Source: an uncultured Actinomycetes bacterium (GTDB taxonomy: Bacteria > Actinomycetota > Acidimicrobiia > Spongiisociales > DATADW01). From it: a stretch of DNA of 64,000 bases. The notes beneath the pieces were generated by a model. That model ran no database searches. It saw nothing but the letters and a program-made list of their open reading frames with translations, and had not been told where the DNA came from. The stretch is from assembly GCA_963824995.1 (NCBI GenBank), contig CAWGRK010000003.1, forward strand, positions 1 through 64,000, in the 5' to 3' direction. Numbering within the stretch: position 1 is the stretch's first letter; every line of letters starts with the position of its first letter. Shown piece by piece: positions 35,397 to 56,707 of the stretch. The position numbers and the translations under genes were made by a program.

Positions 35397-35759
35397 TCAA
35401 CCGGCGGCGGCTACTGCCGACGCCTCGTCGGGATGGACGCCGATCGCCTCGTCGAGGCGGGTCAGCGAAAGAATCTGGCGGTAGTGCTCGTTGAGGCCAT
35501 AAGCGAGCAGCTGCTGTCCGGCACGGTTCGCCCGGATGAGCACGGTCACGAGCAGACCGATGCCGCCACTGTTCATGTACTGCAGCCCCTCGAAATTGAG
35601 GATCACGGCACGCACCCCATTGCCGCTGGCCTCGGCGAAGGCGTCCATGAGGACACCCTCGGAAAACGCCGTGACCTCGCCATCGATATCGATGACGCGG
35701 ACCCCCGGAGCCGCCTCTCTCACTTCCATTGCAACCTCTGCCTGTGGCATGTTCCCCAC
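35397..35759 (-). CDS. STAS domain anti-sigma factor antagonist
   Basis: IDIDGEV, LNFEGLQYMNSGGIG, LTRLD. Confidence 0.92.
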   Translation of the reverse strand: MGNMPQAEVAMEVREAAPGVRVIDIDGEVTAFSEGVLMDAFAEASGNGVRAVILNFEGLQYMNSGGIGLLVTVLIRANRAGQQLLAYGLNEHYRQILSLTRLDEAIGVHPDEASAVAAAG

Positions 35760-35766
35760 TCCCTAC

Positions 35767-36123
35767 CTAGGACGCCGCGTTTGCCGCCAGCGCCGCTTCC
35801 TCGTTCGGATATATGTGCACGAAATCGGCCAGCCGGGTGATCTGGAAGATCTCCCGATAGTGGTCACTCAGTCCGAAGGCCGACATGTCGCGCTGCTCGG
35901 CACGGGCCCGGGCGAGCACCCCCACGATCGCCGCGATCCCTGTGCTGTTGATGTACCCGACCTGGGTGAAGTCGAGCACGACGGAACTTGGCTCAAGGAC
36001 CGCCGCTTCTTCGTAGGCGGCGGCGAGGCGCTCCCGCGCGTTCCCGTCGAGGTCCCCTTCGAGTCGGATCAGCGCCCGTCTCTCCTCGTCGTGCACGGTC
36101 GCCTCAAAGGCGCTCGCCTGCAT
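35767..36123 (-). CDS. STAS domain anti-sigma factor antagonist
   Basis: LEGDLD, LDFTQVGYINSTGI, FQITRL. Confidence 0.92.
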   Translation of the reverse strand: MQASAFEATVHDEERRALIRLEGDLDGNARERLAAAYEEAAVLEPSSVVLDFTQVGYINSTGIAAIVGVLARARAEQRDMSAFGLSDHYREIFQITRLADFVHIYPNEEAALAANAAS

Positions 36124-37711
36124 CGCTTTCTCCTTCCAGGCTCATCTCGAGTTCGAGAGTGTGATGGCGATCTGTGGTGTGGACCCGAAGGTCGTCCACC
36201 ATGCTGCGGATCAGGAACAGGCCCCAACCGCGCGGCGTCTGCAATCCCTCCAGCTTGGCGTCGAGGTCGGGGGTCTCCGGGTCGGGAACCTCCCGCCCGC
36301 CGCCCTGGTCGATGATGGTGACCTTCACCGCTCCGACGTTGGCGCACACCTCTATCTCTACCGGCTTGTCCGGCTCGTTGCCGTTGCCATGCTCGATGGC
36401 ATTCATGGTCGCCTCGGCTACCGCCGTCTTCAATCTCTCCATGCGACCCGGCTCCATACCGAGCGGACTGACCCACTCGGCGACCCGATCCATGGCGACC
36501 CTTTCATTCCCGGCGATGCTGGGGAGCGTGAACTCGCCGAGTGACTGCCAGTCGCCGCCGTCGATGAAGGCGCGGGCGCTCTGCTCGGCCGACGAGCAGC
36601 GGCTGACCAGGACGAGCGTCACGTCGTCCTCCTGCTCCCAATCGGGCCCGGTCCAGGTGTCGAGCTCGGAGAGCACGACTCCGATGAGGCTCTCGCCCTC
36701 GGGACGCGATCCGATGGTGTCGATGACACGCGACACTCCGAGCATCTCGCGTTCCGGCGAGTGGGCTTCGGTGAGACCATCGCTGGAGAGCAACATCACG
36801 TCTCCCGTTTGCAGGGTCGCCTTTTTCTCCTCATAGGTCATCCCGGGCATCAGGCCGAGGGGCATCCCGGTCGCCCTGAGCTCGATCACACCGGTGTCAC
36901 TCCGCACATATGGAAGGACGTGGCCAGCATTCGCAAAGTCCAATTCGCCGGTGGCGGGGTCGAGAATGGCGAAGAGACAGGTCACGAACATCCCCTCGGG
37001 GATGTCGGCCACGAGGATCTCGTTGGCGCGGGCCAGGATCTCGCCTGGAGTCGCACCGGACGTGGCGTTGGCGCGGAGCACCGAACGACAGGTTGCCATC
37101 ACCAGCGCCGCCGGTACGCCCTTGTCGGTGACGTCGCCCACCACGACGCCGAAGCGGCCACCGTCGAGGGGGATGAAATCGTAGAAGTCGCCCCCGACCT
37201 CGCGGGCCGGCCGGTAATAAGCCTCGATCTCCCAACCGGGCAACGAGGGGAGCTGACGGGGCAGCAGTGTCTGCTGGATCAGCGAGGCGACCCGCAACTC
37301 GTGCTCGATCCGCTCCCTTTCCTTGGCCTCGGCCTGTTGGCGGCGGACGAGTTGGGCAACGCGGATCGCAGGCGCCACCTGGGAGGCGAGTCCTTCGAGA
37401 AGCTTGCGGTCGTCGGACGAATACGGCTGATCGGAGAGTCGGCGGCCAAGGTTGAGCATCCCGATGAGCTCACCCTGGCTGATGAGCGGGACCACCAATT
37501 CGACTCCGGCTTCGCGCAACTCTGCCACCGCCGGGGAGTCGAGGCTGAGCCGCTCCAACTCGACAGGCGCGCCCGCGGTCTGCAGATAGGGCAGCAGCGG
37601 ATCGTTGGGAGCGATATCGACATGGATCGACGCCGCCGGCGCCGTCTCCATTTCCTGCGGCTCGGACTCGGCTGCGGAACGACCCTTGCGGATGCGTGAC
37701 AGGACCACCAT
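36104..37711 (-). CDS. Soluble partial-GAF + SpoIIE/PP2C phosphatase + HATPase_c (RsbW-like) fusion
   Basis: VVPLISQGELIGMLNLG..YSSDDRKLLEGLASQVAPAI (GAF C-terminal part); VGGDFYD, GDVTDKG, SDGLTE, EDDVT (PP2C); EATMNAIEHG, DQGGG, RGWGLFLI (HATPase). Confidence 0.93.
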   Translation of the reverse strand: MVVLSRIRKGRSAAESEPQEMETAPAASIHVDIAPNDPLLPYLQTAGAPVELERLSLDSPAVAELREAGVELVVPLISQGELIGMLNLGRRLSDQPYSSDDRKLLEGLASQVAPAIRVAQLVRRQQAEAKERERIEHELRVASLIQQTLLPRQLPSLPGWEIEAYYRPAREVGGDFYDFIPLDGGRFGVVVGDVTDKGVPAALVMATCRSVLRANATSGATPGEILARANEILVADIPEGMFVTCLFAILDPATGELDFANAGHVLPYVRSDTGVIELRATGMPLGLMPGMTYEEKKATLQTGDVMLLSSDGLTEAHSPEREMLGVSRVIDTIGSRPEGESLIGVVLSELDTWTGPDWEQEDDVTLVLVSRCSSAEQSARAFIDGGDWQSLGEFTLPSIAGNERVAMDRVAEWVSPLGMEPGRMERLKTAVAEATMNAIEHGNGNEPDKPVEIEVCANVGAVKVTIIDQGGGREVPDPETPDLDAKLEGLQTPRGWGLFLIRSMVDDLRVHTTDRHHTLELEMSLEGESDAGERL

Positions 37712-37720
37712 GTTGCCTTT

Positions 37721-37753: not shown

Positions 37754-37867
37754 AATGACCCGTTCCATGCCTCTGAGGACGCGAAACATCAAACCTGAAA
37801 GCCGCTTGGCCCTGTATCGGCAGATAGAGCCGCCGCCTAAACGGTCGAAACGGGTGCGGAATGGTGA

Positions 37868-39037
37868 TCACCCGCCCTCCCCGCGTAGCCAGAGCCGGAC
37901 GGTCGCCGGGCGGAGCGTCCGTCCGACGACCCTCGAGAGATCGTCGGTGAGCCCGTCGAGATCCACCTCACTTCGCAACCGCGAGGCGAACTCGTCGACG
38001 ACGCGACCTGCGTCGTACCGGGACCGATCAAAGCGACGGTCGATGAAGCCTTGGACCCTGCGGCGAACCGGGGTGAACAAGGCTGCCGCCGCCAGCGTGG
38101 CACCTGCCACCGCCAACGGATTGTCTTGACCGACGACCGCACCCAGGGCCACGGCGAACCCGGCATAGACCGCCACCAAGACCGCTGCCACGATCGCATA
38201 TGAGACGGTGCGGCTGATGAGCCGATCGATGTCATAGAGGCGGTAACGGAGGATCGCGATGGCGACCGCTATCGGGAAGCCCAGACCGGCAACCACCCAA
38301 GGCACCAGCCCCACCAGGTCGCCCTCGAAACCCAACAATTCGGAGACGAGCATGAAGACCAAACCGAGGAGCGCCGCCACCAGGGCCAGCGCGACCCACT
38401 TCAGTTGACCGCGCTCCACGCCCGACGCCTTTCTGTACCGCCCGATGAGCGACAGAGCACCGAGCACGATCACCAGGACGAGGATCACCACGGCGACGGG
38501 GACGACCGACTCCAGCCACTCCGCTCCGTCGATGCCCATTGGGTTGTCGCCCACACCCGAAGGGGTCACGATGGTGGGTTTGAACAACGATGCCAGGGCG
38601 AAGACAACCAGAGCGGCGTAGCCAACCGCCACCACCGGTCGCCACCTCGACCCGGGCAAATGACCATCTGGGAAATAGAACGTCGCCGGGAAGGCGATGA
38701 GGCCGAAAGCGGGAGGCACCAGGATCGCACCGACGAGGGCCACCCATCCTGCCCAAGATGCGGTCTGCACCGGGAACCAGACAGATTCGGCGATGCTCTG
38801 CAGGTTGACGGCCAGTCCGAGCGCGGTGACTCCCGCCAGCCAGCACCAACCCAAGGGGTGTTCGGGCCGGCGAGCTGCCAGCAGCAACCCGACGATTGGG
38901 AACCCCATGAATGCGGACGCCCAAATCACGTCATCGATCACGACCTCGGCCCCGGAGTTGAACAGGAAGCCGAGGAGCCACGATGCGATCGCGACGACGA
39001 ACAGCAACCCCGCTGCCCACGGCGCCCACCTTTTCAT
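37868..39037 (-). CDS. Array membrane receptor paralog 13 (last), intact
   Basis: MKRWAPW...YRLYDIDRLISRT...DRRFDRSRYD...RLRSEVDLDGL...TLRPATVRLWLRGEGG*. Confidence 0.88.
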   Translation of the reverse strand: MKRWAPWAAGLLFVVAIASWLLGFLFNSGAEVVIDDVIWASAFMGFPIVGLLLAARRPEHPLGWCWLAGVTALGLAVNLQSIAESVWFPVQTASWAGWVALVGAILVPPAFGLIAFPATFYFPDGHLPGSRWRPVVAVGYAALVVFALASLFKPTIVTPSGVGDNPMGIDGAEWLESVVPVAVVILVLVIVLGALSLIGRYRKASGVERGQLKWVALALVAALLGLVFMLVSELLGFEGDLVGLVPWVVAGLGFPIAVAIAILRYRLYDIDRLISRTVSYAIVAAVLVAVYAGFAVALGAVVGQDNPLAVAGATLAAAALFTPVRRRVQGFIDRRFDRSRYDAGRVVDEFASRLRSEVDLDGLTDDLSRVVGRTLRPATVRLWLRGEGG

Positions 39038-39051
39038 GGGCTCTACATCCG

Positions 39052-39495
39052 TCACGGTGCGGTTCCATTGAGCCAGAGAGAAACCGACGCAGGCCGCAAC
39101 GTCTTGTTGACGACGGCAGTGAGGTCGGTCGGGAATATCAGCAGCAACACGAGCAACGCGCAGATGCTGACCACCCATCCCCAAGAGCCATACCAGGCGA
39201 TCAAGTGCTCCAACGGCCATGCGGTGGCAGACGCCAGCGATGAGAGGACATAGACCTGCCCCATCGACGTCAGGGTCTGCGCCACACCGGCCACGATGCA
39301 GAGCACACCGATACGGTTCCCTGGGCGGTGGGCGAGGATGATCGCCCCCACCACGGCGAACGCCGGCCAGGGAATAGCATCGGCGAGCGGCCGGAGATTG
39401 GTGAGCGTGGCCGACCGGTCGACCATGAATGCGACGATGGCGACCCAAGCCACGGCGAAGCCGGCGGCCACTCCCAACCACATTCGCCGCCTCAT
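39052..39495 (-). pseudogene. Array paralog 12: in-frame internal deletion relic
   Basis: N-terminal helices to LLIFPT joined directly to the family C-terminus DLTAVVNKTLRPASVSLWL. Confidence 0.8.
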
Positions 39496-40646
39496 CGGTT
39501 CTCCTCGCGCAGCCACAGGGCGACGCTTGCGGGCCGCAGCGTCTGTCCGACGACGGCGGTGAGGTCGGTGGCGAGACCGTCGAGATCAACCTCGTCCCGG
39601 AGCCGTGCACCAAAGCCGTCCACGATCACGCCGGCGTCATATCGCGAGCGGTCGAAGCGGCGGTCGACAAAGCCCTGCACCCGTCGCCGAACTGGCTGGA
39701 ACAACGCCGCTGCGGCCAACGTCGAGGCAGCCACAGCAAGCGGGTCGTTCGAGCCGAGAATGGCCTGCAATCCGAGGATCGAGCCGATGTAGACACCGGC
39801 CACCACGACCGACACCAGACCGTATGTCAGCGTGCGTCGGATCACCTTGTCGAAGTCGTAGAGGCGGTAGCGCAGCACGGCAACGGCGATCGAAGAGACC
39901 AAAACCAACACCACCAGCGCGAAAACCAGGTTGGCGTCCTGGGTGTAACCCAGTTCGTAGAGAACCATGTTGAGGACTATCGCCGTCACCGCAACGGCGA
40001 GGGCTGCGGCAAAGACCCTGATCTGTTGGCGCTCAATCCCCACAGACCGGCGGTACCGCTGGACCGCCCCAAACAGTGCCGCGCCCACCGCCACCAGCAC
40101 CAGCGCCATGCCTACCACTGCGGCCGGCTCGAAGAAGGGTGACAGTCTGGGAAAGCTGATCGGAAGGGCAATGGTGGTCGGGTCGGATGCCGTGCCCACT
40201 GTTACCGACTCCACGAAGGCGTTTCCGAAGATGAATAGCCCAAGCCCGGTCAGCGTCGCCGGCGCCACCCACCGATAGCGGGCGGAGGGCAGTCTGCCAT
40301 CGGGGAAGAAGAGCGGAAGGAATACGAGAAGCAGCACCAGTGAGGCCGCCCACAGCCAAATCCCGAGCCATGCGCTCCATCCCGCCAAGGGCCCTCCGGC
40401 CGCAGAAACGCCCTCTCCCATCACGCCGAGTGCGAAGGTGAGGCCGAAACCGGCGAGGATCAAGCCCACCGGATTCTCGGGGAGCCGCCAGACCAGATAG
40501 GCGCCGACGACGCTGGGAGAGGCGATCGCCAGCAGCCCCATTGCGTCGACCAGCCAACCGTCGCTCTGCTGGTTCTGAGTCTGCCCATACACGATGACGG
40601 CGACGCTTACCAGGGCGATGCCGATGCCCAACCAGCGCCGGATCAT
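39492..40646 (-). CDS. Array membrane receptor paralog 11, intact
   Basis: MIRRWLGIG...FFPDGRLP...YRLYDFD...TLRPASVALWLREENR*. Confidence 0.88.
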   Translation of the reverse strand: MIRRWLGIGIALVSVAVIVYGQTQNQQSDGWLVDAMGLLAIASPSVVGAYLVWRLPENPVGLILAGFGLTFALGVMGEGVSAAGGPLAGWSAWLGIWLWAASLVLLLVFLPLFFPDGRLPSARYRWVAPATLTGLGLFIFGNAFVESVTVGTASDPTTIALPISFPRLSPFFEPAAVVGMALVLVAVGAALFGAVQRYRRSVGIERQQIRVFAAALAVAVTAIVLNMVLYELGYTQDANLVFALVVLVLVSSIAVAVLRYRLYDFDKVIRRTLTYGLVSVVVAGVYIGSILGLQAILGSNDPLAVAASTLAAAALFQPVRRRVQGFVDRRFDRSRYDAGVIVDGFGARLRDEVDLDGLATDLTAVVGQTLRPASVALWLREENR

Positions 40647-40750
40647 GATGGTTCCTTCCGCAGCCATACCAGTGATAGCCCCGGCAGGAGGCCGAGTCCC
40701 GGGCGCCGGCCCACCCCCGCGGCGGCAGAAGTCGTTGGGGTAGAGCCCAT
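40643..40750 (-). pseudogene. Array unit 10: 35-aa mini-ORF relic
   Basis: MGSTPTTS...LSLVWLRKEPS*; TGATG overlap upstream and ATGA overlap downstream; C-terminus resembles the family SLWLRxE tail. Confidence 0.55.
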
Positions 40751-41879
40751 CAGCCCCTCTCCTTGACCCACAGCGAGACCGTCTCGGGGTGGAGCGTCCG
40801 CCGCACGACGCTGGTCACGTCGCCAACTAGGCCGTCGAGATCTATGCCTTGACGCAGCCGCGAGGAGAACGTCGTCCACTTCCTGGGCTGCGTCGTATCT
40901 CGCCCGATCGAAGCGTCGGTCGATGAAGGCCTGCACCCGGCGCCGCACCGGCGTGAAGAGCGCCGCCGAAGCAAGCGTTGCTCCCGCAACGGCCAGGGGG
41001 TTGCCCCGCCCCACCAGGGATCCGAGGGCCAGGATTGAACCCGCATACACCGCCACAAGGACCGCCGCCACTACCGCGTAGGAAACGGTGCGGCTGATCA
41101 GCTTGTCGATGTCGTAGAGCCGGTAGCGGAGGATGGCGACGCCGATGGCCGCTGGTATGGCGTTGAGGGCGATGAAGACGAGTGACACATCGAGGATGAC
41201 GCTCTCCGGGACCAACTGAGTGATCACCAGCATCACGATCACGAACGCGATCGCCGTCATCAACCATGGGTACTGGAGCCGCTCCACCCCGCTGCTGGCG
41301 CGCCACCTCCGTACCAGGCTGCCCAAGGCGACGAGGAGGAGCAACGGGATCACGAAGAACCCCTGGTCGAGCATGAAGGCGGTGAAACCGGAGAGACGTG
41401 TCGACTGCCAGCGGGCTCACCAGGCCGGTGATCTCCTTGGGGGCCGGGCTGACGAGCTCGGCAAAGACCACTGCACCCAAGACGACAAGTAGCGCCCTGC
41501 TCAGGAATCGATCCAAACCGGTGGCTGGTGCGCCATGCGGGAACCACACCGGAATGAGGGCTAGACCAACGAACGCCGAGTAACCGAGAGACGAGCTCAG
41601 CATTTCGACCCAAACGCTGACGATTCCGATCATCTCTCCGGCTAACAGCCCCTCGAGGAAGAAGGTCAGGCTCCATGCCAAGCCAATGAACAAAAGGAGC
41701 CGCCCCATCCGGTTCCCCGGTCTCTTCCACAGGATGAACGCACCGACGGTCGGAAATCCCACCCAGCTGAGCATCCACCAGCTGTCGGACAGGGTTATCG
41801 CCCCGATGATCAGGCCGGCGAGCGCCAGCAGGAACAGCAGCGTGAGCCCCAGCCGCGAGGCAACGGTTGCCTGCTTCAC
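40750..41879 (-). CDS. Array membrane receptor paralog 9, frameshifted
   Basis: VKQATVASRLG...KRPGNRMG...YRLYDIDKLISRT...TLHPETVSLWVKERG*. Confidence 0.82.
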
Positions 41880-43070
41880 GCGTCCTCCCGGAGCCAGACC
41901 GACATGGTCGTCGGGTTGCAGTGTCTGGCCCACGACACCCGAGAGATCGGAAGTGAGCCCCGGGAGGTCCACCTCCGCCCGGAGCCTCGAGGCAAAGCCG
42001 TCGACCACCCTCGCTGCGTCGTACCGCGATCTGTTGAAGCGCCGATCGATGAAGGACTGAACCCGGCGGCGCAACGGGTTGAACAATGCCGCCGCAGCCA
42101 GAGTGGCCCCTGCCACCGCCAGCGGATTGCCGCGGCCCACCAGCGATCCGAGAGCCAGGATGGAACCGGCGTACACCGCTACCAGGACGACGGCAATGAC
42201 CGCGTAGGAGACGGTGCGACTGATGAGCCGATCAATCTCATAGAGGCGATAGCGGAAGATGGCCACGCCGATGGCGAGCGGCAAGAGGCTGATGGCTACG
42301 GCGAAGGGGACGTCGGTTTCAACCGAGAGGTCCGCCAGCGACTGGAGGAGGTCCTCGGTCGACCGGTATCAGCGCGGTGACGAGGGCAGCGAATGTGAAC
42401 CACTTGAGCTGTAGCCGCTCGTCGCCCCGGGAGCGTCGGTATCGCACCACCACCGAGGACGCCGCAGCGAGGATCGAGCGCGGCAAGCAGAATGAAGAGC
42501 GCGCTGCCGATGGTGCTGTCCTCGACATCGGGCATGCCGGCAAAGCCGACTGGGTTGGGCAGCGAGAAGTCGGGCTCTCCGAGGTTCTCGGAGAGCGCCG
42601 CCATCACCGTTATCACCCCGGTGACAGCAATCCCGAGCCACAGAACCGGTCGCCACCGACGGCTCACCGGTGTGCCGTCCGGAAAGAGGAGCGGCGTAAA
42701 GAAGAGCACCAAGGCGAGCGTCGGGTACCAGTACCACTCGGCGAGCCAGGCCGCCGGTATCAATGCGGGCGCATCCACCATCCTCGCTTCGACCACATAT
42801 GCGACGTACTCACCAGCCAGGGCGCCGATCATCACCAGCAGGCCAATGGAAGAAAGTATCCAGCCCATCGCATTGCCAGGACGACGGAGGATGATCAGCA
42901 AGCCGGTGGCCATGTAGGCGGAGAAGGCCAGGAGGAGGCCGACATTGCCCGCAGGGTCGTCGGCGAACCGACCACTCCGTGCGTTGAACAGCTGGATCAG
43001 GAAGGCGCAGGTGACGTAGACCACCACCATGGCTACGACGACAAGCCATGAGTCGGGATCGGAGCTTCAC
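41876..43070 (-). CDS. Array membrane receptor paralog 8, frameshifted
   Basis: RRPGNAMGW, LLFPDG..RRWRP, ERLQLKW, YRLYEIDRLISRT; ends PTTMSVWLREDA* after a 1-nt correction. Confidence 0.82.
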
Positions 43071-43148
43071 GGCGCTTCCCGCAACCGTGTGAACCGACGA
43101 CTCACGGGTATACCACCACGGCGACTGCGAGCGGGTAGACGAACCGTC

Positions 43149-44387
43149 TCACGACTCCGCCTCCCGCACCCAGAGAGACATCGTGGCGGGGCGGAGTGTT
43201 TCCTCGATCACCCCGGTCAGGTCGCTGCGCAAGCCGTCCAGATCGGTCTCAGCTCGCAGTCGATAGGAGAACTGCTCCACAACCTGTTGGGCGTCATAGC
43301 GTGCACGATCGAATCGGCGGTCCACCCAACTCTGGACACGGCGTCGAACCGGGTTGAACAGCGCTGCGGCTGCCAGGGTGGCGCCCGCCACAGCCAACGG
43401 GTTGTCGCGACCGATGATGGTGCCCAAGGTGGTGACGCTCCCCAGGTAGACGAGCGCCAGTAGCACAGCCACGGCCGTATAAGTGAACGTACGGCGGACG
43501 AGTCGATCTATCTCATAGAGGCGATATCGGATCACAGCAACGGCGATGGCCACCGGGATAGCGGCGATCGAGATGACAAAGAGGAGGTCCAGCCACGCCG
43601 GCGTTTCCTCACCACCGGAGAAAGCGAACATGGAGGAGTAGACGGTGGCGAACATCCCGACGGCGTAGGCGAGCCACTTGATCTGCTGGCGTTCCTCCGC
43701 CCGGGCGCGGCGATAGCGGACGATGACCGCCGACGCGCTCCCCAGAGCCAGGATTACCAACCCCACCCCCCACACAGGCGAGAAGCCCCCCTCCCAGAAT
43801 TCACTGGTGATGAACCCGATCGGATTGGGCACCGACCAGATGGTTGTTTCCCCAACTACCAGCTCGAGCTCTGCGGAGAAGACGGTGAGGAGCGTGAAGA
43901 CCAGGAGCATCCCCGCCTCCAACGCCACCAGCCATCGCCAGCGTGGGGTGGGAACCGTGCCGGTTGGGAACACCAGGGGCAGATGGAAGATCGGAAAGAT
44001 GAACAGAACCCAGGACCAGCCCTGAAACCAGATCAGTAGCCAGACGCCGAGGTCAACGGTCGGCGGAGCCGTCAAGGACGAAAGTGGGATGGCGGTCAGA
44101 CCCGACAACGAGGCTCCCAGGGCCCAGACCAGTAGCAGCCAACCGATCGGGTTGCGGGGACGGGAGGCGAGGATGAGCATCGCCGCCGCTGCAGTGATTA
44201 ATGGAATGAGCACCAAGACCGGATCCCCATCCAATCGGTCCAACTCACCCTGGCGGATCGTGATGAGGATGTAGGACACCGAGATGGCGAGAACGATCAC
44301 AGCGATGCCCCAGGCCAGCGGTCGCCGCCAGCCGAAGCCCACGACCTCATGTTCCGCGGACGGTGCCCCTCGGTCCGGGTCGGCCAT
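43149..44387 (-). CDS. Array membrane receptor paralog 7, intact (412 aa)
   Basis: RPRNPIGW, FPTG..PRWRW, ERQQIKW, YRLYEIDRL, TLRPATMSLWVREAES*. Confidence 0.9.
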   Translation of the reverse strand: MADPDRGAPSAEHEVVGFGWRRPLAWGIAVIVLAISVSYILITIRQGELDRLDGDPVLVLIPLITAAAAMLILASRPRNPIGWLLLVWALGASLSGLTAIPLSSLTAPPTVDLGVWLLIWFQGWSWVLFIFPIFHLPLVFPTGTVPTPRWRWLVALEAGMLLVFTLLTVFSAELELVVGETTIWSVPNPIGFITSEFWEGGFSPVWGVGLVILALGSASAVIVRYRRARAEERQQIKWLAYAVGMFATVYSSMFAFSGGEETPAWLDLLFVISIAAIPVAIAVAVIRYRLYEIDRLVRRTFTYTAVAVLLALVYLGSVTTLGTIIGRDNPLAVAGATLAAAALFNPVRRRVQSWVDRRFDRARYDAQQVVEQFSYRLRAETDLDGLRSDLTGVIEETLRPATMSLWVREAES

Positions 44388-45561
44388 CAGGCATCACCTC
44401 TTGTCGATGCCAGCCACACCCCGGTGATGGTGGGACGAAGCGTGTGGTTTACAACTCCTTCCAGGTCGGCGGTGAGCGCATCCAGTTCCATCTGGTCGCG
44501 CAGGCGCGCCGAGAACCCGGCCACGACCTGCACACTGTCGTAGCGCGCCCTGTCGAAGCGGCGGTCCACCCACCCCTGGACCCGCCGTCGCAACCGGGGT
44601 GAAGAGCGCGGCCGCCGCCAGGGTGGCTCCCGCGACCGCCAACGGATTGTCCCGACCGACGACAGCGCCGAGCGCAGCTATCCCCCCGAGATACGCGCCG
44701 GCGACGATCACGGCCACGATCGCGTAGGCCAGAGTCCGAGTGATGAGCCGATCGATCTCGTACAGACCGAGGCGCGTCACAGCCACGAACAGCGTGCCGC
44801 CAATCGAGGATGACGAAGCCGATGTTGATGAAAGAGGACAGCAGGGGCGGTATGTCGCCGGGGATGGACACGGCGAAGAAGATCACCGCGACGACGCCGA
44901 CCCAGGCAAACCACTTGATCTGCTGGCGCTGCACCGTACCGGCGCGCCGAAAGCGGAAAATGAGCGAGGTGACCCCGATCAACGAGGCGACGGGGATGGC
45001 GTTGAAGACGATCGGTGCTAGCGCTTCTGCGATGGGCATGAAGCTGGCGATTCCCAGCGGGTTGTTCAAACCAGGTAATAGCTCTTCGTCCACCGGTCCC
45101 GAGGCAAAGGCGCTGATCAAGAACGTGAGCCCAACCAGCGTCCAGAGCAGCCATAACAGAGGGCGCCACCGAGGAGATGCCGGCCGACCGTCTGGATAGA
45201 GCGCTAGGAGGAAGGGGATCGAATAGGGCCCTGGGATCCACACCCAGAGGGAGCACCACCCCGCCACCAAGGTCACCCAATGATCGGGCCCCAAATTGGT
45301 CAGGCCATAGTGGGCGAGGTCCGAGAGCAGTGCTTCCAGTGGGAAAACCAGACCGGGTATGAGGGCCAGCCATGCCACTGCGTTGGTTGGCTGACGACGC
45401 GCGATGAGGAAGCCGAACGTCCCGAGGATGACGAATGCGAACAGTTCGACCGCTTCGAGCACCGGGCTGGCACCCGCCGATGGCGCATACGCGCCGTAGA
45501 CAACGGCTGCCAACCAGGAGACGATGCTCGCCAGCCAGACGACCAGGGCTGCCCGTCTCAC
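44387..45561 (-). CDS. Array membrane receptor paralog 6, frameshifted
   Basis: VRRAALVVWL...QPTNAVAW...YPDGRP...QRQQIKW...LYEIDRLITRT...TLRPTITGVWLASTRGDA*. Confidence 0.82.
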
Positions 45562-46735
45562 GAGCTCCTCTCCGACCAGCACCACCGACATCGTGGCCGG
45601 GCGCAGCGTCGAGCCGACGATTGTCGTGAGGTCAGTGGTCAATCCCTCCAGATCCACCTCGTCGCGTAGCCGGGCCGAAAACCCTTCCGCCACGCGGACA
45701 GCGTCGTAGCGGCCCCGGTCGAAGCGGCGATCCACCCAACGTTGCACCCGGCGGCGTAGCGGGTTGAACAACGCCGCCGCCGCCAGGGTCGCCCCGGCCA
45801 CCGCCAGCGGGTTCTCACTCCCGACGAGCGCTCCCAGCGCCGCCACCCCACCTAGGTACACCAGGGCGAGCAGCACGGCCACCACGGTGTAGCTCACGGT
45901 ACGACGGACGAGGCGGTCAATCTCGTAAAGGCGGTAGCGGAGCACCGCGATCCCGATGGCAATCGGGAAAACCAGCACGGCCAGAACGAAACTGGCATTC
46001 TCGACCGCATCCGGCACGTCGACACCGAAGGCCACCGCAATCTCCTGTGACACGATCGCGACCGCCACCAGCGCCATCGCGAACGTGAGCCAGGAGAGCT
46101 GCTTCCGTTCGACACCCGAGGCTTTGCGGAACCTGACCACCAGTGAGGCCGACGCCAAGACAACGCCAGCAAGGATGCCGAAGATGACCATTGTCTCCGC
46201 CAAAGAGCCCTCGGAATAGTCGGGCGCCATCCCCACGCCAAGCGGGTTCGAGATCACCCCGTTCAGGGTGGGCTGAACGAGCGCGAGCGCGGTGTGGCAC
46301 ACGACAACTCCCAATGCCCCCCACCCGACCCAGGCCCATCCGGGAGTGGGTGGCCGACCGGTCGGGAAGAGCAGCGGGAGGATGACCACGGTGCAGACGA
46401 CGGCAGCGATGAAGAAGATGTCGCTCACCAGGAATCCGGCGACTGCCAGGCCGGTCGATCCACCGGTCGAGGCTCGCTCGGCGATAGGACTCCCCACCGC
46501 GCTCGATGAGAGCGATCGCTCCGATCGCCACCATCACCCAGCCGACGCGGTTCCCGCCGGTCCGCCAGACGATGGTGGCTCCCACCAGTGACATGGCCAG
46601 GAAGGCTGCCGCCAGCGGGTCGAGGCCTTCCCAAGTATCACTTGTCCCCGCGGGCAAGAACCCGTAGGCGATTACCCCCGCCAGAGTCGCCCCGAAGAGA
46701 GACCACGCCAGGACCGTCTGCGTCCGAGGCTTCAT
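45558..46735 (-). CDS. Array membrane receptor paralog 5, frameshifted
   Basis: MKPRTQTVLAW...GGNRVGW...LLFPTGRP...ERKQLSW...YRLYEIDRL...TLRPATMSVVL. Confidence 0.82.
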
Positions 46736-47908
46736 GACCCCTCCCCGGCCAGCCACATCGATACGCCGGCCGGGCGGAGGGTCTCGCCCACAATTCGGGT
46801 GAGACCGCCCGTGAGTCCTTCGAGGTCCACCTCGTCGCGTAGCCGTTCCGAGAAAGCGGAAACTACCTGCGAAGTGTCGTAGCGGGTCCGATCGAATCGG
46901 CGATCCACCCACCCCTGAACCCGCCGGCGGACAGGAGTGAAAAGCGCTGCCGCTGCCAGAGTCGCACCTGCCACGGCCAATGGGTTATCGCTCCCGACAA
47001 CCGCTCCGAGGGCCGCCACTCCTCCCAGATCGACCGCGGCGAGGACCGCAGCAACCAATCCGTAGCTCACCGTCCGGCTTATCAACCGGTCGATGTCGTA
47101 CAGCCGATACCGGAATATTGCGACCGCCATTGCCGCAGGGAGCAATACACCGGCAACGGCCTCGTTTATCTGGTCGAGCACGCCAGGAAGGTCGATGGCC
47201 CAGGATGGGAGACTGAACACTGCCGCCAAGGCGAGCCACTTGATCTGCCTTCGCTCGACCCCGGAGGCTTTTCGGTAGCGGAGCAGCACGGACAGGACGC
47301 CCAGGGGCACTCCGGCAAAGAGCACTATCAAGAGCACGCTCCCCGCCGGCTCGAGAGCTTGAGCGGATGTCTTGCTCACCACGCCGCTCCATGTGGCCGG
47401 AAAAGTGCCGCTTTCAGCTGGGAGCATCCAGATTCGCCGCCGCCATCAGCCCCACGGCGATGGAAGTCGTCCAGGCCACGATTCGCCAGAATGTTGAGGA
47501 GAGTCTGCCGTCGGGGAAAAGGAGCAAGACGAGACCTATCAGCCATAACGAGGAGAGGAAGCCGTAGTCGCCGATCAGACCGAGCAGCCCCGTAGATAGC
47601 GGTCCCGTCTGCCCGGAGGCGAGCAGGAAAACCCCGTAGTCACGGCATGCCGATTGCATTATCTGGGCAAATCCCAGACCCAACCAAGCCCATCCGTACC
47701 CCTTGTCTGGGAAACGGGTCACCAGCAGCCAGCCGACTGCAGCAATAGCGAGCCCGCTCGGGTACGAGGCGAGCCGGGTCGCCCAAGGGGCGACGTCGGC
47801 GAGTGCCGGGAAGTTCCGGCTAGCCAAGGCCGACCAGATCCCTACCAGTGCAATTGCCACCGTCACCAGGGCCACGATCGTGGCGCTCGCGGCGAAGCGA
47901 CGTCTCAT
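46732..47908 (-). CDS. Array membrane receptor paralog 4, frameshifted
   Basis: MRRRFAASA...LLFPDGRL...ERRQIKW...YRLYDIDRL...TLRPAGVSMWLAGEGS*. Confidence 0.82.
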
Positions 47909-49065
47909 GTCCGCTCCCCCACAAGCACCAAGGAGACGGCGGCCGGTCGGAGGGTGTCGCCGACGAGTCGGGTGAGGTCTCCAGTGAGACCTTGGAGATC
48001 AACCTCGTCGCGGAGCCTCGCCGAGAACTCCTCGACGACCTTGTGGGCGTCGTATCGGGTTCGATCGAACCGACGGTCCACCCATTGCTGGATCCGGCGC
48101 CTCAACGGGTTGAACAGAGCGGCCGCAGCCAGAGTGGCGGCGGCAACTGCCAGCGGGTTGGTCCTTCCCAAAACTGTCCCCACCAGCGCAACGGACGCCA
48201 GGTAGACCCCGGCAAGCACCGCGGCCACCAACGTGTAGCCGGCCGTCCTCCTGATCAATCGATCGATGTCGTAGAGGTGGTAGCGGAAGACGGCAACGGC
48301 GATCGAGACCGGAAGCAGGACGAGGCCGAGGAAGAGGAGCTCGGCGATCACACTTCCCTGTGCGGTGAACTCGGCGACGATGCCCGCTGCGACGACCGCC
48401 ACCGCCAACAGGAACCACTTGACCTGGGCCTGCTCGACACCCCGTGAACGGCGAAATCGCACGATCACAGATCCGAGAGCCGCCACCGCCCCGAAGAGCA
48501 TCATTGGTACACCCACCGTGTTCAGCACAGCGAGGATCGGGCTCGTCGGCTGGAGTTCGTCGCCGGTGAAGAGCTGGACCGGCGACAACTCGAGGGCGGC
48601 AGGCAGCCCGGCAACTGCGACGAACACGAACCCCGTGACACCGACCCATGCGATCCAACGCCACCGGGGTGTCGGAGGCCGGCCGTTGGGGAACAGGAGC
48701 GGGAGCAGGCAGGTCAGGACGGTCACCCAGCCGAAGAAACCGACGCCGCCAAGCCAGTAGAAGATCTGCGGCCATGGTGCCGCCACCCCAGCCGTGGCCA
48801 GGGCCTCCATGATCTCGTCGGCTAAGACGTTGAGCGCGGCGAGAAGCCCAACGAGAGCAACCAGCCAACCGACAGGCTCCTCGGGACGGCGCGCGACCAG
48901 AACGGCTCCCGTCAGCGTGAACGAGACCAGCATCCAGCCAAAGACCAGCACCTCGGAGGAAAAGCCCTCATCCCCGGTGGCGAAGAGGACGAATGCCGCG
49001 ATCCCGCTCACGACCGAGATCCCCGCCATGACCAAGCCCCAGCGACGACGCACGGCGGGGCTCAC
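47905..49065 (-). CDS. Array membrane receptor paralog 3, intact (386 aa)
   Basis: RRPEEPVGW, LLFPNGRPPTPRWR, EQAQVKW, YHLYDIDRL, TLRPAAVSLVL. Confidence 0.9.
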   Translation of the reverse strand: MSPAVRRRWGLVMAGISVVSGIAAFVLFATGDEGFSSEVLVFGWMLVSFTLTGAVLVARRPEEPVGWLVALVGLLAALNVLADEIMEALATAGVAAPWPQIFYWLGGVGFFGWVTVLTCLLPLLFPNGRPPTPRWRWIAWVGVTGFVFVAVAGLPAALELSPVQLFTGDELQPTSPILAVLNTVGVPMMLFGAVAALGSVIVRFRRSRGVEQAQVKWFLLAVAVVAAGIVAEFTAQGSVIAELLFLGLVLLPVSIAVAVFRYHLYDIDRLIRRTAGYTLVAAVLAGVYLASVALVGTVLGRTNPLAVAAATLAAAALFNPLRRRIQQWVDRRFDRTRYDAHKVVEEFSARLRDEVDLQGLTGDLTRLVGDTLRPAAVSLVLVGERT

Positions 49066-50210
49066 CTGCTCGACTTCCCGAACAGGACCACACCGGCGGA
49101 AACCGGGCGAAGCGTGGCTGCCACGACCCCTGTCAGTCCCGTGGTCAGTCCGTCGAGATCGACCTCGTCACGCAGTCGAGCCGAAAACCCCTCGACGACT
49201 TGCCCCGTGTCGTAACGAGCCCGGTCGAAGCGGTGATCGACCCATGCCTGAACTCGGCGCCGAACCGGGTTGAACAAGGCCGCGGCGACCAATGTGGCGC
49301 CGGCTACTGCGAGCGGGCTTGTTCGCCCCACCAAAGCCCCGATGGCGGCGATGCCGCCGAGATACATCGCCGCAAGGAGCACGGCAACAAGTGTGTAGGT
49401 CACCGTCCGTCGGACCAACTGGCCAATGTCGTACAAGCGGTAGCGGAGCACGGCTATCCCAATCGCAACCGGGAAGACGGACACTGCGAACACGAAAGAG
49501 GAATTCCCAACCCAATCCGGTATCTCGAGACCCAAGATGGGCGCAAGCTCTTGGGCGACGAGCGTGACCGCGATCATTGCCACCGCGTACGTCAGCCAGG
49601 CGACCTGCTTGCGCTCGACGCCTGTAGAGTGCCGGAACCTGACCACGAGACTCGCCGCGGCGAGGACCATGCACGCCAGCAGGACGACGATCACGGCCGT
49701 CCCGATGGCCGAGTCCTCGGCTCCCGGGGCTCCGGCGACCCCGAGCGGGTTGGGGACCCCGTCTGCCACGGTGGGCTGGATCACTACGAGCACCGCGTTC
49801 ACCACTACGGCGCCCACGGCCGCCCACGCAACCCAACCCGAGCGGGGAGTCGGGAGGCGCCCATTAGGAAAGAGGAGGGGGAGGAACACGAAGGTCCCGG
49901 CGAGGGTGGCGAAGAACATCGAATCGGAAAACAGCGAACCGAGCACCAACGACCACTCGGGCACATCGCTCCGATCGGCGAGGATTCCTGTCAACGCGCT
50001 CGACACCGCGATCAACCCGATGCCGACCATGACCCATCCCACGGGGTTGCCCCCGGTGCGCGAAACGATCACCGCCCCAACGAGCGCCATGGCGAGGTAC
50101 GGGATCGAGAGCGAGTCGAAGGCGTGCTGAGCGATTTGGTTAATTACGACGCCGGCCAGGATCAAGACGAAGATCGACCACGCCACCACTGACTGGGTGC
50201 GCCGGTTCAT
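49062..50210 (-). CDS. Array membrane receptor paralog 2, intact (382 aa)
   Basis: GGNPVGW, LLFPNGRL, ERKQVAW, YRLYDIG, TLRPVSAGVVL. Confidence 0.9.
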   Translation of the reverse strand: MNRRTQSVVAWSIFVLILAGVVINQIAQHAFDSLSIPYLAMALVGAVIVSRTGGNPVGWVMVGIGLIAVSSALTGILADRSDVPEWSLVLGSLFSDSMFFATLAGTFVFLPLLFPNGRLPTPRSGWVAWAAVGAVVVNAVLVVIQPTVADGVPNPLGVAGAPGAEDSAIGTAVIVVLLACMVLAAASLVVRFRHSTGVERKQVAWLTYAVAMIAVTLVAQELAPILGLEIPDWVGNSSFVFAVSVFPVAIGIAVLRYRLYDIGQLVRRTVTYTLVAVLLAAMYLGGIAAIGALVGRTSPLAVAGATLVAAALFNPVRRRVQAWVDHRFDRARYDTGQVVEGFSARLRDEVDLDGLTTGLTGVVAATLRPVSAGVVLFGKSSR

Positions 50211-51355
50211 CGTTCATCCATGAGCCAGAGCGACGCCCCCTTCGGGCGGAGGGTGACGTTGACCACGCGCGTCAATTCCGAGCTGAGTCCTAGAAGGTCG
50301 ACCTCGTCGCGTAGCTTGGCGGTGAACCCCTCGACCACCCTCTGGGCGTCGTACTTCGACCGGGAGAAGCGCCGGTCAACCCACCCCTGCACCCGCCGTC
50401 GCACCGGTGTGAACAGCGCGGCAGCGGCGAGGGTGGCCGCCGCAACCGCAAGCGGGTTCTCACTCCCGACCAGAGCGCCCAAGGCGGCGACGCCACCGAG
50501 GTACACCGCCGCCAGCGCCACCACGACTACGGCGTAGGTGACGGTGCGATTGACTATCCGGTCTATCTCGTAGAGCCGATAGCGGAAGATTGCTATTCCG
50601 ATCGCGACGGGGAGCAACAGGTACGAAACGCCGTAGAGGATGCTCTCGAGGGTCTCGTTCAGCTCCAGCAGGTCGAGGGTTCCGACCACCACGATGAACA
50701 CGGCTGCGGCGTAGAGCAGCCACCCGATCTGCCGGCGCTCGAGCCCACCAGATCGGACAAATCGCACGACGAGGGAGATCACCGAGACCACCCCGACGAC
50801 GAGGAATCCGGTGAGGAGAGCAGGGCCGATCGCCAAACCGATATCGACCAGCAATGGTATGGCGATCGGGTTGGCGAAGTCGGGCTCCACCTGACCGAAG
50901 GCGCTCAGTATCACGAATAGCCCGCCGACCGCGACGGTGACCCTCACCACCCAACGCCAGCCAGGACTCGGGGGTCGGCCCGTCGGGTAGAGCAGGAACA
51001 GCAGTCGGGATCAGGGCCAATCCGGCGTTCCAACCCCAGAGGAGAACCAACGACCGATCACGGCGCCCGGTCGGCCGGTCGTCGCCCACATCACTCCTGC
51101 GACGCTGAGCCAGACAAAGAGCCCGTCGAGCAGAAGCAGCCAACCCACCGGATTGCCCCGCCGTATCACGATCAGGGATCCGACTGTGCTGAGGGCGAGA
51201 AAGGCGATCCCGATGTCAGTCCCCTCGAGGTCGGGGATCCTGTCCCGACAGTTGCATGACGGCAACGAGGGCAAAACAGGGACGACCAGCGCAAGGATCG
51301 CCATCGCCAGCACCCGGAGCGGGCGCGACGGAATAGCCCACTCCCTCTCCGTCAT
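50207..51355 (-). CDS. Array membrane receptor paralog 1 (first), frameshifted
   Basis: MTEREWAIPS...RGNPVGW...YPTGRP...ERRQIGW...YRLYEIDRIVNRT...TLRPKGASLWLMDER*. Confidence 0.82.
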
Positions 51356-51435: not shown

Positions 51436-51670
51436 ACAATCAGGCCCAAGACCGATCGGCCCGGGCCCGTAATCGTTGAAATGTCGTTCTGCGAGCGCCG
51501 GACTCTCGCGTTGGTGCTCGAGCGGGGCGCTCCCAAGGCATCATCGGCACCGGGGACGAAGCAAATGAAGCGTCTAGTTGCCAGCACCGTCAGAGATCAA
51601 CCGAGGTCGACCCTCCTGGGCGGTGATCACGCCCCGAAATATCGAGCCATCGTTACGATCTCGGCTCGGG

Positions 51671-56704: not shown

Positions 56705-56707
56705 CGT

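Follow-up and report, generated by a model that had tools for sequence, protein, structure and literature searches.

A tandem array of paralogous membrane proteins beside a phosphatase with an incomplete GAF domain: a candidate split sensor switch

We wanted to understand what a head-to-tail array of paralogous membrane-protein genes, lying on the minus strand from 51355 to 37868 of the window (the whole stretch of 64,000 nucleotides analysed), could be doing as a group, and with which neighbouring gene its products might work.

Units of the array and their broken frames

With four intact copies as tblastn queries, each remaining copy was matched at E 1e-40 to 1e-80, and 16 of 16 matches across the 2.9-Mb genome (G000) fell within the 64-kb window. 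A profile HMM of the array detected 12 C-terminal ends, and the array is therefore made of 12 units, 11 full-length and one relic. The preliminary description of this locus had counted 13 units, two of them relics; its 11 full-length genes stand, while the HMM found no 13th unit and U11 is the only relic. The features are listed below, where private indels are those absent from the compared same-genus genomes.

50207..51355, minus strand: U1, full-length, HMM positions 27-391, ATG at 51355
49062..50210, minus strand: U2, intact, 382 aa, ATGA overlap with U1
47905..49065, minus strand: U3, intact, 386 aa, GTGA overlap with U2
46732..47908, minus strand: U4, full-length, private 1-nt insertion near 47436, ATGA overlap with U3
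45558..46735, minus strand: U5, full-length, frame change near 46507, assembled frame continuing into U6
44387..45561, minus strand: U6, full-length, private indels near 45560, 44806 and 44593, TGATG overlap with U7
43149..44387, minus strand: U7, intact, 412 aa, the unit used for structure prediction
43071..43148, minus strand: 78-nt gap between U7 and U8
41876..43070, minus strand: U8, full-length, 1-nt insertions near 42477, 42360 and 41917
40643..41879, minus strand: U9, full-length, frame changes near 41404 and 40870, GTGA overlap with U8
39492..40646, minus strand: U10, intact, probable start at ATG 40646 (ATGA overlap), longest ORF from 40667
39052..39495, minus strand: U11, relic, N-terminal ~123 aa joined in frame to the last ~23 aa
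37868..39037, minus strand: U12, intact, 389 aa, last unit of the array, aligning to residues 60-398 of the fused protein P0127 (see below)

Twelve units make 11 junctions, nine of which overlap (ATGA five times, GTGA three times, TGATG once), and not ten of 12 as announced earlier; the two gaps, of 78 nt (43148-43071) and 14 nt (39051-39038), are found where they had been placed. At the U5/U6 junction, the frame as assembled falls one base short of the GTGA stop. For U10 and U11, the most likely starts, judging from the sequence, are the ATGs of their ATGA overlaps (40646 and 39495) and not the upstream starts of the longest ORFs. It is solely from the overlapping stops and starts that we infer co-expression of the array. 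All six shared motifs that had been picked out before correspond to conserved columns of the paralog alignment. Copy number differs between relatives: four same-genus genomes carry about 1.2 kb at the 43071..43148 gap, including a C-terminal half-unit, and U5 is without ortholog in four same-genus genomes, its nearest paralog being U2 (about 60% at the amino-acid level). The relic U11 has a deletion of ~690 nt compared to relatives, which have a full unit there, and its last ~23 aa include part of the GAF helix a1 and strand b1 discussed below.

As assembled, only U2, U3, U7, U10 and U12 are open. The six others (U1, U4, U5, U6, U8 and U9) together contain at least 11 indels that are not multiples of three, so that the two 1-nt corrections proposed earlier were too few. 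In U1, the frame is lost and regained twice, at 1-nt indels near 51280/51236 and again near 51040/51004, private to G000, with one TGA inside the second short shifted stretch; in U8, the insertion near 42477 is also present in G005 and those near 42360 and 41917 are private to G000. One could see here a decaying array in which six of the 11 full-length units are true pseudogenes. The clumping of the indels would fit, since the private indels of G000 hit six full-length units and leave the other five without any, more unevenly than an even error rate predicts, and both the relic U11 and the differences in copy number among species are real events of decay or recombination. However, private frame-breaking indels are as frequent in the array (10 in 11.8 kb, 0.84/kb) as in the flanking single-copy genes (3 in 3.6 kb, 0.83/kb), where the essential lysS and a DUF72 gene are also split. 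They are mostly insertions and occur in all five genomes, at sites that differ from one genome to another, and G002 has open orthologs of the broken units. Moreover, in contigs from an independent run one base is missing at 42360/42361 and another at 41912, positions that coincide with, or lie no more than 5 nt from, two of the insertions private to G000; these contigs cover just two frameshift sites, at a depth of 2-5, and a strain difference is possible. True pseudogenes are thus very improbable. By sequence comparison, the frameshifts are most likely long-read assembly errors, so the full-length units are probably all intact, and frameshifts in such arrays from long-read metagenome-assembled genomes should not be taken as pseudogenes. 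It is still less credible that the array itself is a chimeric mis-assembly of fewer copies. A repeated gene family in a long-read metagenome assembly does invite this suspicion, but the DNA identity between paralogs is only 63-76% even in the tails, with no long identical tracts, and orthologous units stand in the same order in four other same-genus assemblies (80-95% identity).

Topology and evolution of the unit protein

The predicted model and the positive-inside rule point to a ten-helix membrane protein with both termini inside (N-in/C-in), the K+R content being 0.28 in predicted cytoplasmic segments versus 0.03 in predicted outside segments. In the model of U7, the membrane part has a pLDDT of 85-93 and the a1-b1 stretch one of about 40. 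Helices 1-8 make up a variable 7TM-like bundle, and helices 9-10 with the cytoplasmic tail are conserved. When nine paralogs are compared in pairs, helices 1-8 show an identity of 0.16-0.28 and four of the five outside loops one of 0.11-0.27, against 0.48-0.73 in the cytoplasmic loops, 0.63 in the tail and 0.80-0.88 in helix 10 and the RRRVQ helix. These values bear out the variable sensor part and constant tail of the preliminary description. Its prediction of variability in the outside loops also holds, but the variability is not confined to them, as the entire 7TM-like bundle varies.

No Pfam family was found for the units in a Pfam scan. HisKA_7TM (PF16927) matched residues 41-262 of U2 with an E of 0.0024 and 18.2 bits, below the gathering threshold of 28.6; it did not match U3, U7 or U10, and a few homologs carry it as a precomputed family. 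This family is the N-terminal 7TM region of histidine kinases, whereas the units have ten helices and a GAF fragment. Compared with 7TM receptors, the predicted bundle shows a generic likeness only (Z 9-11.5). A two-component histidine kinase was considered for the units and rejected: they end about 300 residues before the ends of their kinase homologs, and neither a HisKA-type phosphoacceptor nor HATPase_c is present in the four intact units.

The array was plausibly built by repeated duplication, although the sensor parts of a single array differ from each other as much as from the units of other phyla. In nine ortholog pairs, dN/dS is 0.10-0.25 (0.08-0.16 in the C part); dS in the C part of U2 and U7 is 3-5 times higher. 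The orthologs are under purifying selection and the genes are maintained, and for this reason the diversity of the sensors is old and not the product of ongoing diversification. Sensor parts have an identity of 0.290 within arrays and 0.279 between arrays, with a nearest neighbour from the same array for 19 of 76 units. For the C-terminal parts, identity is 0.648 within versus 0.496 between arrays, and the nearest neighbour comes from the same array for 65 of 76 units. Gene conversion alone could produce this likeness of tails within an array.

The partner gene and the split GAF domain

The genes that flank the array on either side are the following.

36104..37711, minus strand: partner, 535 aa, GAF remainder-PP2C-RsbW-like
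35767..36123, minus strand: STAS-1, 118 aa, PF01740 at E 3.6e-14, with a 20-nt overlap of the partner stop
35397..35759, minus strand: STAS-2, 120 aa, PF01740 at E 5.5e-13
51578..54513, plus strand: divergent AfsR/SARP-like regulator with BTAD, AAA_16 and TPR

The partner is composed, in this order, of a short basic N-terminal peptide, a spacer, a GAF remainder starting from strand b2, a helical linker, a PP2C domain of the SpoIIE family (residues 183-370, PF07228, E 1e-49) and a HATPase_c_2 domain (PF13581, E 5.8e-21; RsbW/SpoIIAB-like). Its matches to the NCBIfam SpoIIAB and RsbW models are under the curated cut-offs. The basic peptide is conserved and the spacer variable. STAS-1 looks, by its sequence, like an RsbV/SpoIIAA-like anti-sigma-factor antagonist. 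Three parts of a partner-switching module are thus present: a PP2C phosphatase, an RsbW-like kinase and STAS proteins. No sigma-factor family was found among the ORFs scanned beside the cassette. The regulator (BTAD E 1.9e-18, AAA_16 E 8.7e-18, TPR_12 E 1.5e-15) is split into two ORFs as assembled (51578-52261 and 52087-54513), with private 1-nt insertions near 52096 and 52047 breaking its frame; the N-terminal ORF, 51578-52261, where a regulator of this family would have its winged-helix DNA-binding domain, matched no Pfam or NCBIfam family. In other phyla too, the regulator is conserved, divergent and upstream of the first unit. The PADLOC models of anti-phage defence gave no family for U7, the partner or the regulator.

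The preliminary description saw a constant tail but missed that this tail is the beginning of a GAF domain, the rest of which is encoded by the next gene. The tail of the units ends with GAF helix a1 and strand b1; the units have no Pfam GAF match and end after b1, and in 74 loci all unit ends lie within a few residues of one point after b1. The partner covers only positions 53-133 of the 133 of the Pfam GAF profile (PF01590). We looked for a complete GAF on one polypeptide at this locus and rejected it, given where the units end and what the partner covers. Complete forms exist elsewhere as single-gene TM-GAF-PP2C proteins (P0126, P0127 and P0218, labelled 'serine phosphatase RsbU' by their source, and one at L054), with the same membrane module, tail and GAF. 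P0127, of 758 aa, is collinear with U12 followed by the partner: its residues 60-398 align to U12 (40% identity, E 2e-46), its residues 406-755 to partner residues 31-380 (60% identity, E 2e-139), and its residues 371-491 are a Pfam GAF over profile positions 3-133. The TM-GAF-HisKA_3-HATPase_c kinases of Actinomycetota and Chloroflexota share the same three parts, and the alignment of the units to TM-GAF-HisKA_3 kinases runs to the first GAF strand and then ceases. In the predicted model of the natural fusion L054:1980-2606, a1 (58-73) and b1 (78-82) have a pLDDT of about 92 and the remainder one of 94-96; between them, the linker (87-100) drops below 50. All 50 of its 50 listed structural matches are GAF domains (Z 11.6-13.2), and the alignments cross the split, with 137 of 151 residues of 3eea aligned over model residues 53-197 and 145 of 155 residues of 3cit over 30-202. 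Compared to these fused proteins, the present locus is cut inside the GAF after b1 and has 11-12 diverged copies of the membrane half for a single output half, which also bears an RsbW-like kinase domain.

Recurrence of the cassette and a proposed mechanism

Cassette or unit loci were found 74 times, in Actinomycetota and Chloroflexota; 45 have at least two units and 31 at least four. Among runs of four or more units, 16 of 23 have the partner no more than 1.5 kb beyond the last unit, on its downstream side; the same holds for 6 of 12 runs of two or three units and for 3 of 32 single units. No partner is directly downstream, and unrelated genes follow, in 29 of the 32 single-unit runs, 6 of the 12 runs with two or three units and 7 of the 23 larger ones. 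Where this was checked, all five genomes with a partnerless unit locus (5/5) encode the partner elsewhere. In 26 of 26 loci, the gene order continues from the partner to a STAS gene, and most of them have a second one; 25 loci have the regulator, and 20 combine it with both partner and STAS. In G000, the GAF remainder occurs once and the tails only in the array. Among 41 order-level genomes, a strong match to the PP2C-type GAF remainder (E <= 1e-30) was obtained in 10, all of which carry stand-alone units (8 of 8 without the unpublished genomes G010 and G021), and none of the 18 genomes without unit matches gave one. The proposed stress-signalling switch is common in soil bacteria.

We consider it rather probable that the array provides 11 alternative membrane sensors, plus a relic, of a naturally split TM-GAF-PP2C protein, which jointly control one partner-switching output. 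As the fused form is predicted to be a complete GAF across the split, the units may complete the fold: the a1-b1 of a unit would insert into the incomplete GAF of the partner, which would complete the domain and tether the enzyme to the membrane. The GAF and, behind it, the linker helix would then relay the state of the sensor to the PP2C and kinase domains, and these would set the phosphorylation state of the STAS proteins, the partner-switching output. A single output protein would be shared among the 11 sensors, or they would compete for it. Physical complementation, signal direction, the stimuli perceived and a sigma factor or other target further down are all deduced here and are put forward as such. 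A fuller version has about an even chance of being right, namely that any of about 11 sensors can lend its a1-b1 to a single soluble phosphatase/kinase whose GAF is incomplete, with only one sensor completing it at a time, that competition integrates or time-shares membrane signals, and that all tails co-evolve with the single partner of their genome.

Synteny and co-occurrence show linkage and not the mode of contact, and units, partner, STAS proteins and regulator could cooperate in another way, with the tail as a docking or oligomerisation element, or as an inhibitor or decoy, and the shortened GAF of the partner sufficient by itself. The conserved basic peptide and the variable spacer of the partner might substitute for the missing elements. 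We find this rather unlikely: the spacer is unconserved, the units of 74 loci end near the same point, and the fused form contains a1 and b1 as confidently predicted elements of a fold whose alignments to complete GAFs continue across the split. The units might also be autonomous membrane proteins, for example transporters or enzymes, with a phosphatase neighbourhood that is historical and a tail that is the vestige of a lost kinase or phosphatase fusion. This would agree with their having no Pfam family, with the many single units that have no adjacent partner, and with the size of the family (43,958 cluster representatives at E <= 1e-3, mostly stand-alone). But the tail is the best-conserved part of the protein, the C part is under purifying selection, partnerless loci have a partner elsewhere in the genome wherever this was checked, and hundreds of kinases, phosphatases and cyclases have this module as their N-terminal input (among 12 long ORFs of order-level relatives, HisKA_3 and/or HATPase_c is found in 10). 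Autonomous units are accordingly improbable. With such a huge and mostly stand-alone family, some members may nonetheless work without this partner.

One paper reports that sensor domains including GAF control PPM phosphatases via a helical linker and that RsbT activates RsbU in the RsbU/RsbV/RsbW partner switching of Bacillus subtilis, and it names the multidomain PP2C regulators S. coelicolor OsaC and M. tuberculosis Rv1364c (PMC12143880). Like RsbU/RsbV/RsbW, the present cassette has a PP2C phosphatase, an RsbW-like kinase/anti-sigma domain and STAS antagonists; unlike RsbU and RsbW, its phosphatase and kinase are fused. As RsbT does with RsbU, a separate protein would activate the phosphatase by way of its linker and regulatory N-terminal part. 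RsbT, however, is kinase-like and binds a four-helix bundle, whereas the activator here would be a membrane sensor that supplies missing GAF elements. OsaC and Rv1364c, also from Actinomycetota, likewise have a sensor domain, PP2C and anti-sigma-type domains on one polypeptide, but neither a membrane-sensor array nor a split domain. OsaC has GAF and PAS N-terminal domains and Rv1364c is a PAS-PP2C-anti-sigma-antagonist fusion, both being soluble with complete sensor domains. The array also resembles the RsbR paralogs of the Bacillus stressosome, soluble STAS proteins in a large complex that join variable sensing parts to a conserved signalling part and one phosphatase-controlled output; unlike the units, they are not membrane proteins, do not form tandem arrays of this size and have no split domain.

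In the literature searched, we found no description of this array with a split-GAF switch, and a wiring of many inputs to one output of this kind would be undescribed for bacterial signalling. The usual view of partner-switching phosphatases and sensor kinases is that one polypeptide joins one sensor to one output; in the present locus, the cut between sensor and output falls within a folded domain, and it is the sensor half that exists in many copies. The operon type recurs across two phyla of poorly studied soil bacteria, and the proposed reading gives it a concrete, testable role. If complementation is true, it would explain a large family without Pfam entry (about 44,000 cluster representatives), offer a mechanism for many-to-one integration of signals at the membrane, present in thousands of soil Actinomycetota and Chloroflexota, and provide natural orthogonal split-domain pairs usable for synthetic signalling.

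Finally, the locus has eleven N-fragments for one C-fragment, an odd stoichiometry for an obligate complementation.

A tandem array of probable membrane sensor genes

The window covers the initial 64 kb of contig C3 in a 2.9-Mb MAG (17 contigs, 66% G+C, estimated 85% complete), and its closest named homologs come from Acidimicrobiia. Four intact copies used as tblastn queries, together with a profile HMM built from five, revealed 12 units arranged head to tail, each ~1.17 kb long. Eleven of them are full length; the relic, U11 (39495-39052), has its first ~123 residues fused in frame to the last ~23. A whole-genome search returned 16 unit matches, all within the array stretch. The genes discussed here are the following.

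51355-37868, minus strand: array of probable membrane sensor genes, U1 to U12
37711-36104, minus strand: partner gene, 535 aa, with a GAF remainder, PP2C and RsbW-like kinase
36123-35767, minus strand: first STAS gene (PF01740, E 3.6e-14)
35759-35397, minus strand: second STAS gene (PF01740, E 5.5e-13)

The two STAS genes lie directly 3' of the partner, and an AfsR/SARP-like BTAD-AAA_16-TPR regulator is encoded divergently upstream of U1. The preliminary description of the array was confirmed in part. It had counted 13 units, and no 13th was located by tblastn or the profile HMM; overlapping stop and start codons were indeed found, at nine of 11 junctions (five ATGA, three GTGA and one TGATG) instead of ten of 12. 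The two gaps it reported, of 78 and 14 nt, are the two remaining junctions, and each of its six motifs corresponds to conserved columns. A promoter and terminator scan gave no signal exceeding the shuffled expectation. The cassette lies between panC-coaX-lysS and folB-folP-folE-ftsH-tilS (window 27000-33000 and 55000-63000), a housekeeping neighbourhood conserved in Actinomycetota. A 287-aa ORF (55359-56222, minus strand) combines Clp_N with a full FolB (dihydroneopterin aldolase) domain, which could reflect an unusual fusion or an indel that joined two genes.

As assembled, only U2, U3, U7, U10, and U12 are open. Each unit was aligned with its orthologs from four other genomes of the genus, where the array has the same order at 80-95% nucleotide identity. 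The frame breaks were found to be 1-nt indels private to the window's genome, while the other four genomes carry private 1-nt indels of their own at different sites, and the flanking single-copy genes show the same pattern. In a count across 10 blocks of units and two of flank, private indels of a length not divisible by three numbered 10 in 11.8 kb of the array (0.84 per kb; 8 insertions, 2 deletions) and 3 in 3.6 kb of the flanks (0.83 per kb). The essential lysyl-tRNA synthetase gene (28941-30433, minus strand) is itself frameshifted into two overlapping ORFs (OB-fold part 29564-30433, class II core 28941-29765), which fits assembly indels throughout the genome. The DUF72 gene (33793-34531, minus strand), with profile positions 1-49 in one ORF (33911-34531) and 64-216 in another (33793-34299), likely holds a further assembly indel, and the regulator adjoining the array is also in two ORFs as assembled. 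Four of the broken units, U1, U4, U6, and U8, have open orthologs in the same-genus relative G002. Among public runs, none of RNA was found for the array. The only run found (X1), with a small share (0.05) of the sampled words, contains part of the stretch as short low-depth contigs with 0-3 other differences from the window, and three indel rows were listed for them. Two sites in its contigs, 42360/42361 and 41912, are one base shorter, and each coincides with a private insertion of the window's genome or lies no more than 5 nt from one. We regard the frameshifts as very probably long-read assembly errors, with the caveat that they are clumped, being confined to six units. Mis-assembly of the whole array is unlikely, since the paralogs are 63-76% identical in DNA even in their tails and five assemblies have the same order. 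A contig joint from 39684 to 48257 (side 35 nt) was left unused, as most likely a paralog chimera or from another organism. An excess of private insertions at methylation-type motifs (TCGA/GATC) was unconvincing (12 of 69 versus 6.8 expected, with a maximum of 14 in 300 random draws).

Fold and conservation of the unit protein

The units matched no Pfam or NCBIfam family, a sub-threshold HisKA_7TM hit in U2 being the sole match, and PADLOC gave none for U7, the partner or the regulator. Unit homologs made up 1,826 of 8,000 scored candidates from a 90%-clustered collection at E <= 1e-3, and a 44-sequence profile retrieved 43,958 representatives of 50%-identity clusters at E <= 1e-3 and 12,760 at E <= 1e-30. 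Of the 150 best profile matches, nearly all were stand-alone proteins of 385-440 aa. The family is very large, although neither database has a model for it.

An AlphaFold2 model of U7 (44 sequences) reached a mean pLDDT of 76, with 85-93 in the membrane part, and showed ten helices with a hairpin following helix 5, while the last 33 residues were unstructured (pLDDT ~40). Foldseek found no match to the model in the PDB at E <= 1e-3. An all-versus-representatives structure search returned only generic 7TM bundles (GPCRs, rhodopsins) over residues 45-300, at Z 9-11.5, which is below the tool's meaningful level for helical bundles. The assigned topology is a predicted N-in/C-in arrangement; across nine paralogs, lysine and arginine make up 28% of segments placed in the cytoplasm versus 3% of those placed outside. 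These paralogs, five units of the window's genome and the open G002 orthologs of U1, U4, U6, and U8, with U5, U9, and U11 excluded, also served to measure conservation.

Pairwise identity among nine unit paralogs, by region
Helices 1-8: 0.16-0.28
Outside loops, four of five: 0.11-0.27
Outside loop 9 (the fifth): 0.69
Cytoplasmic loops: 0.48-0.73
Helix 9: 0.48
Helix 10: 0.88
Tail: 0.63

A GAF domain divided between two genes

In other families of the order, the unit module is the N-terminal part of proteins of 700-800 aa, and 10 of 12 such ORFs contain HisKA_3 and/or HATPase_c, several with an intervening GAF. The units align to these longer proteins through the first GAF strand, and then stop.

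Module fusions among the longer proteins
GAF-HisKA_3-HATPase_c: majority
GAF-PP2C: P0126, P0127, P0218
Class III adenylate cyclase: P0166, P0213
STAND/NB-ARC-type NTPases with HTH: P0149, P0175

The fused 758-aa protein P0127 is collinear with U12 followed by the partner: its residues 60-398 are 40% identical to U12 46-388, and its residues 406-755 are 60% identical to partner residues 31-380. In Pfam, the GAF domain of P0127 spans 371-491 (profile 3-133), and the break thus falls ~28 residues into it. In line with this, the partner matches GAF profile positions 53-133 only, followed by SpoIIE/PP2C and HATPase_c_2. We then folded a natural fusion of the two parts from another genome (L054:1980-2606; 209 aa, 35-row alignment), in which residues up to 86 are homologous to the unit and those from 103 onward to the partner. 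The GAF elements a1 (58-73) and b1 (78-82) were modelled at pLDDT ~92 and the remainder at 94-96, with a linker (87-100) of pLDDT <50 at the split position. All 50 structural matches listed for this model were GAF domains (Z 11.6-13.2), and whole stand-alone GAF structures aligned with it across both sides of the split site. The unit tail is the start of a GAF domain, the rest of which is in the downstream gene. P0127 and L054 have as a single chain what the window carries as two genes, the cut falling within the GAF fold.

Partners are ~60% identical over the GAF remainder. Split partners (window 37622-37711, minus strand; L024-L097) start with a conserved short basic peptide, approximately M-T-x-L-T-R-P-x-R-R-L-L-G-R, and a non-conserved spacer of 25-45 residues separates it from the GAF remainder. 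A similar sequence, A-L-F-x-P-V-R-R-R-V-Q, directly follows helix 10 in the units, and the peptide may be a leftover of it. From the U12 stop to the partner ATG there are 156 nt (37712-37867, minus strand), a multiple of three, and U12 and the partner thus share a frame; the interval has at least two stops, one of them ~5 codons ahead of the ATG.

Occurrence, divergence and proposed signalling of the cassette

The GAF remainder is found once in the window's genome, and tails are found in the array only. Strong matches to the PP2C-type GAF remainder (E <= 1e-30) were obtained in 10 of 41 order-level genomes (G000-G005, G009, G010, G019, G021), and in G001, G009, G010, and G019 it adjoins stand-alone units on the same contig. 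It was absent from 13 genomes with only longer kinase-type frames and from 18 without unit matches, and a weak match in G016 lies in a 759-aa frame. All 10 have stand-alone units, a co-occurrence that is 8/8 when the unpublished genomes G010 and G021 are excluded, and these genomes are kin from four families, the counts not being a statistical test.

A locus scan with one genome per species, covering at most ±10 kb per locus, gave 75 loci, or 74 without G002. They were labelled Acidimicrobiia, Rubrobacteraceae, Nocardioidaceae, Mycobacteriales, other Actinomycetota, Chloroflexia, Limnocylindria, and Anaerolineales, and a few Acidobacteriota. Within this span, 45 of the 74 loci have at least two units and 31 at least four, with a maximum of 10. 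Of 85 runs, 67 were assessable. The last unit is followed by a partner within 1.5 kb in 16 of 23 runs with at least four units, in six of 12 runs of two or three, and in three of 32 single units; at three loci, the partner sits upstream, or in the middle of two runs. The partner has a STAS gene on its 3' side at 26/26 loci, mostly as a pair. Twenty-five loci include the regulator, usually transcribed away from the first unit, and 20 combine it with both the partner and STAS. The fused form is found at one locus, L054. The genes downstream of partner-less runs are unrelated (P450, pyridine-nucleotide-disulphide oxidoreductase, chaperonin, SufB, and others), with no alternative partner among the 16 ORFs scanned, and all five checked genomes with a partner-less unit locus encode the GAF remainder elsewhere (E 1e-35 to 1e-41). 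A SufB gene adjoining a single unit at L031:8649-11300 contains an intein (Hint and LAGLIDADG domains).

A quick maximum-likelihood tree was made from 76 units, each covering at least 330 HMM positions within one ORF; nine belong to the window's genus, and the others to ten large arrays picked from the 74 loci. Units clustered by array, with support of 94-99 for six arrays. When the alignment was split, this grouping proved to be due to the C-terminal 140 columns only.

Relatedness of 76 units in the two parts of the alignment
C-terminal 140 columns: identity 0.648 within vs 0.496 between arrays; nearest neighbour in the same array 65/76; label changes on the tree 16
Sensor part (244 columns): identity 0.290 within vs 0.279 between arrays; nearest neighbour in the same array 19/76; label changes 47 (shuffled mean 57)

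These identities indicate that the sensors diverged anciently, while the tails are genome-specific. This pattern fits co-evolution of the tails with the single partner, gene conversion, or both. When U2 and U7 were compared with their orthologs, dS in the C-terminal third was 3-5 times that of the N-terminal two-thirds (U2, 0.43-0.55 vs 0.09-0.15; U7, 0.87 vs 0.17), which hints at gene conversion among tails. Between-species dN/dS of orthologs was 0.10-0.25 in nine pairs (one pair was skipped for stops), and 0.09-0.42 in the variable part. The array itself changes slowly. U5 (45558-46735, minus strand) is extra in the window's genome: it has no ortholog in the four same-genus genomes, is closest to U2 (~60% amino acid identity), and looks like a unit inserted via recombination between tails. 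As assembled, its frame continues into U6 as a 682-aa ORF (44449-46497), and three contigs of run X1 part from the window at 45560. Between U7 and U8, G002-G005 (L007-L010) carry the C-terminal half of a unit (HMM 187-390) within ~1.2 kb. It is missing from the window's genome, where only the 78-nt gap (43071-43148) is found, and U11 of the window's genome has an internal deletion.

The components of the cassette are of known kinds: a kinase-type membrane input module, GAF, PP2C, RsbW-like kinase, STAS, and a SARP-type regulator. In the literature covered, subscription journals being outside it, we found no description of the cassette, of any GAF domain that is naturally split across two genes, or of a sensor half multiplied into arrays. 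Here, there are 11 copies of the membrane half, diverged, kept by selection and closely overlapping in frame, and one copy of the output half; two STAS genes and the regulator accompany the set across two phyla. The earlier reading of the array as a co-expressed receptor repertoire with a constant signalling tail is supported in part, and extended. We propose that a1-b1 of a unit would complete the GAF domain of the partner, and that the completed domain would anchor the PP2C/RsbW-like enzyme to that sensor. The state of the sensor could then be passed through the GAF domain and the following helix to the phosphatase, and the enzyme would in turn set the phosphorylation of the STAS proteins. 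Sensor domains, GAF included, are proposed to act on PPM phosphatases in this way, via a helical linker (PMC12143880).
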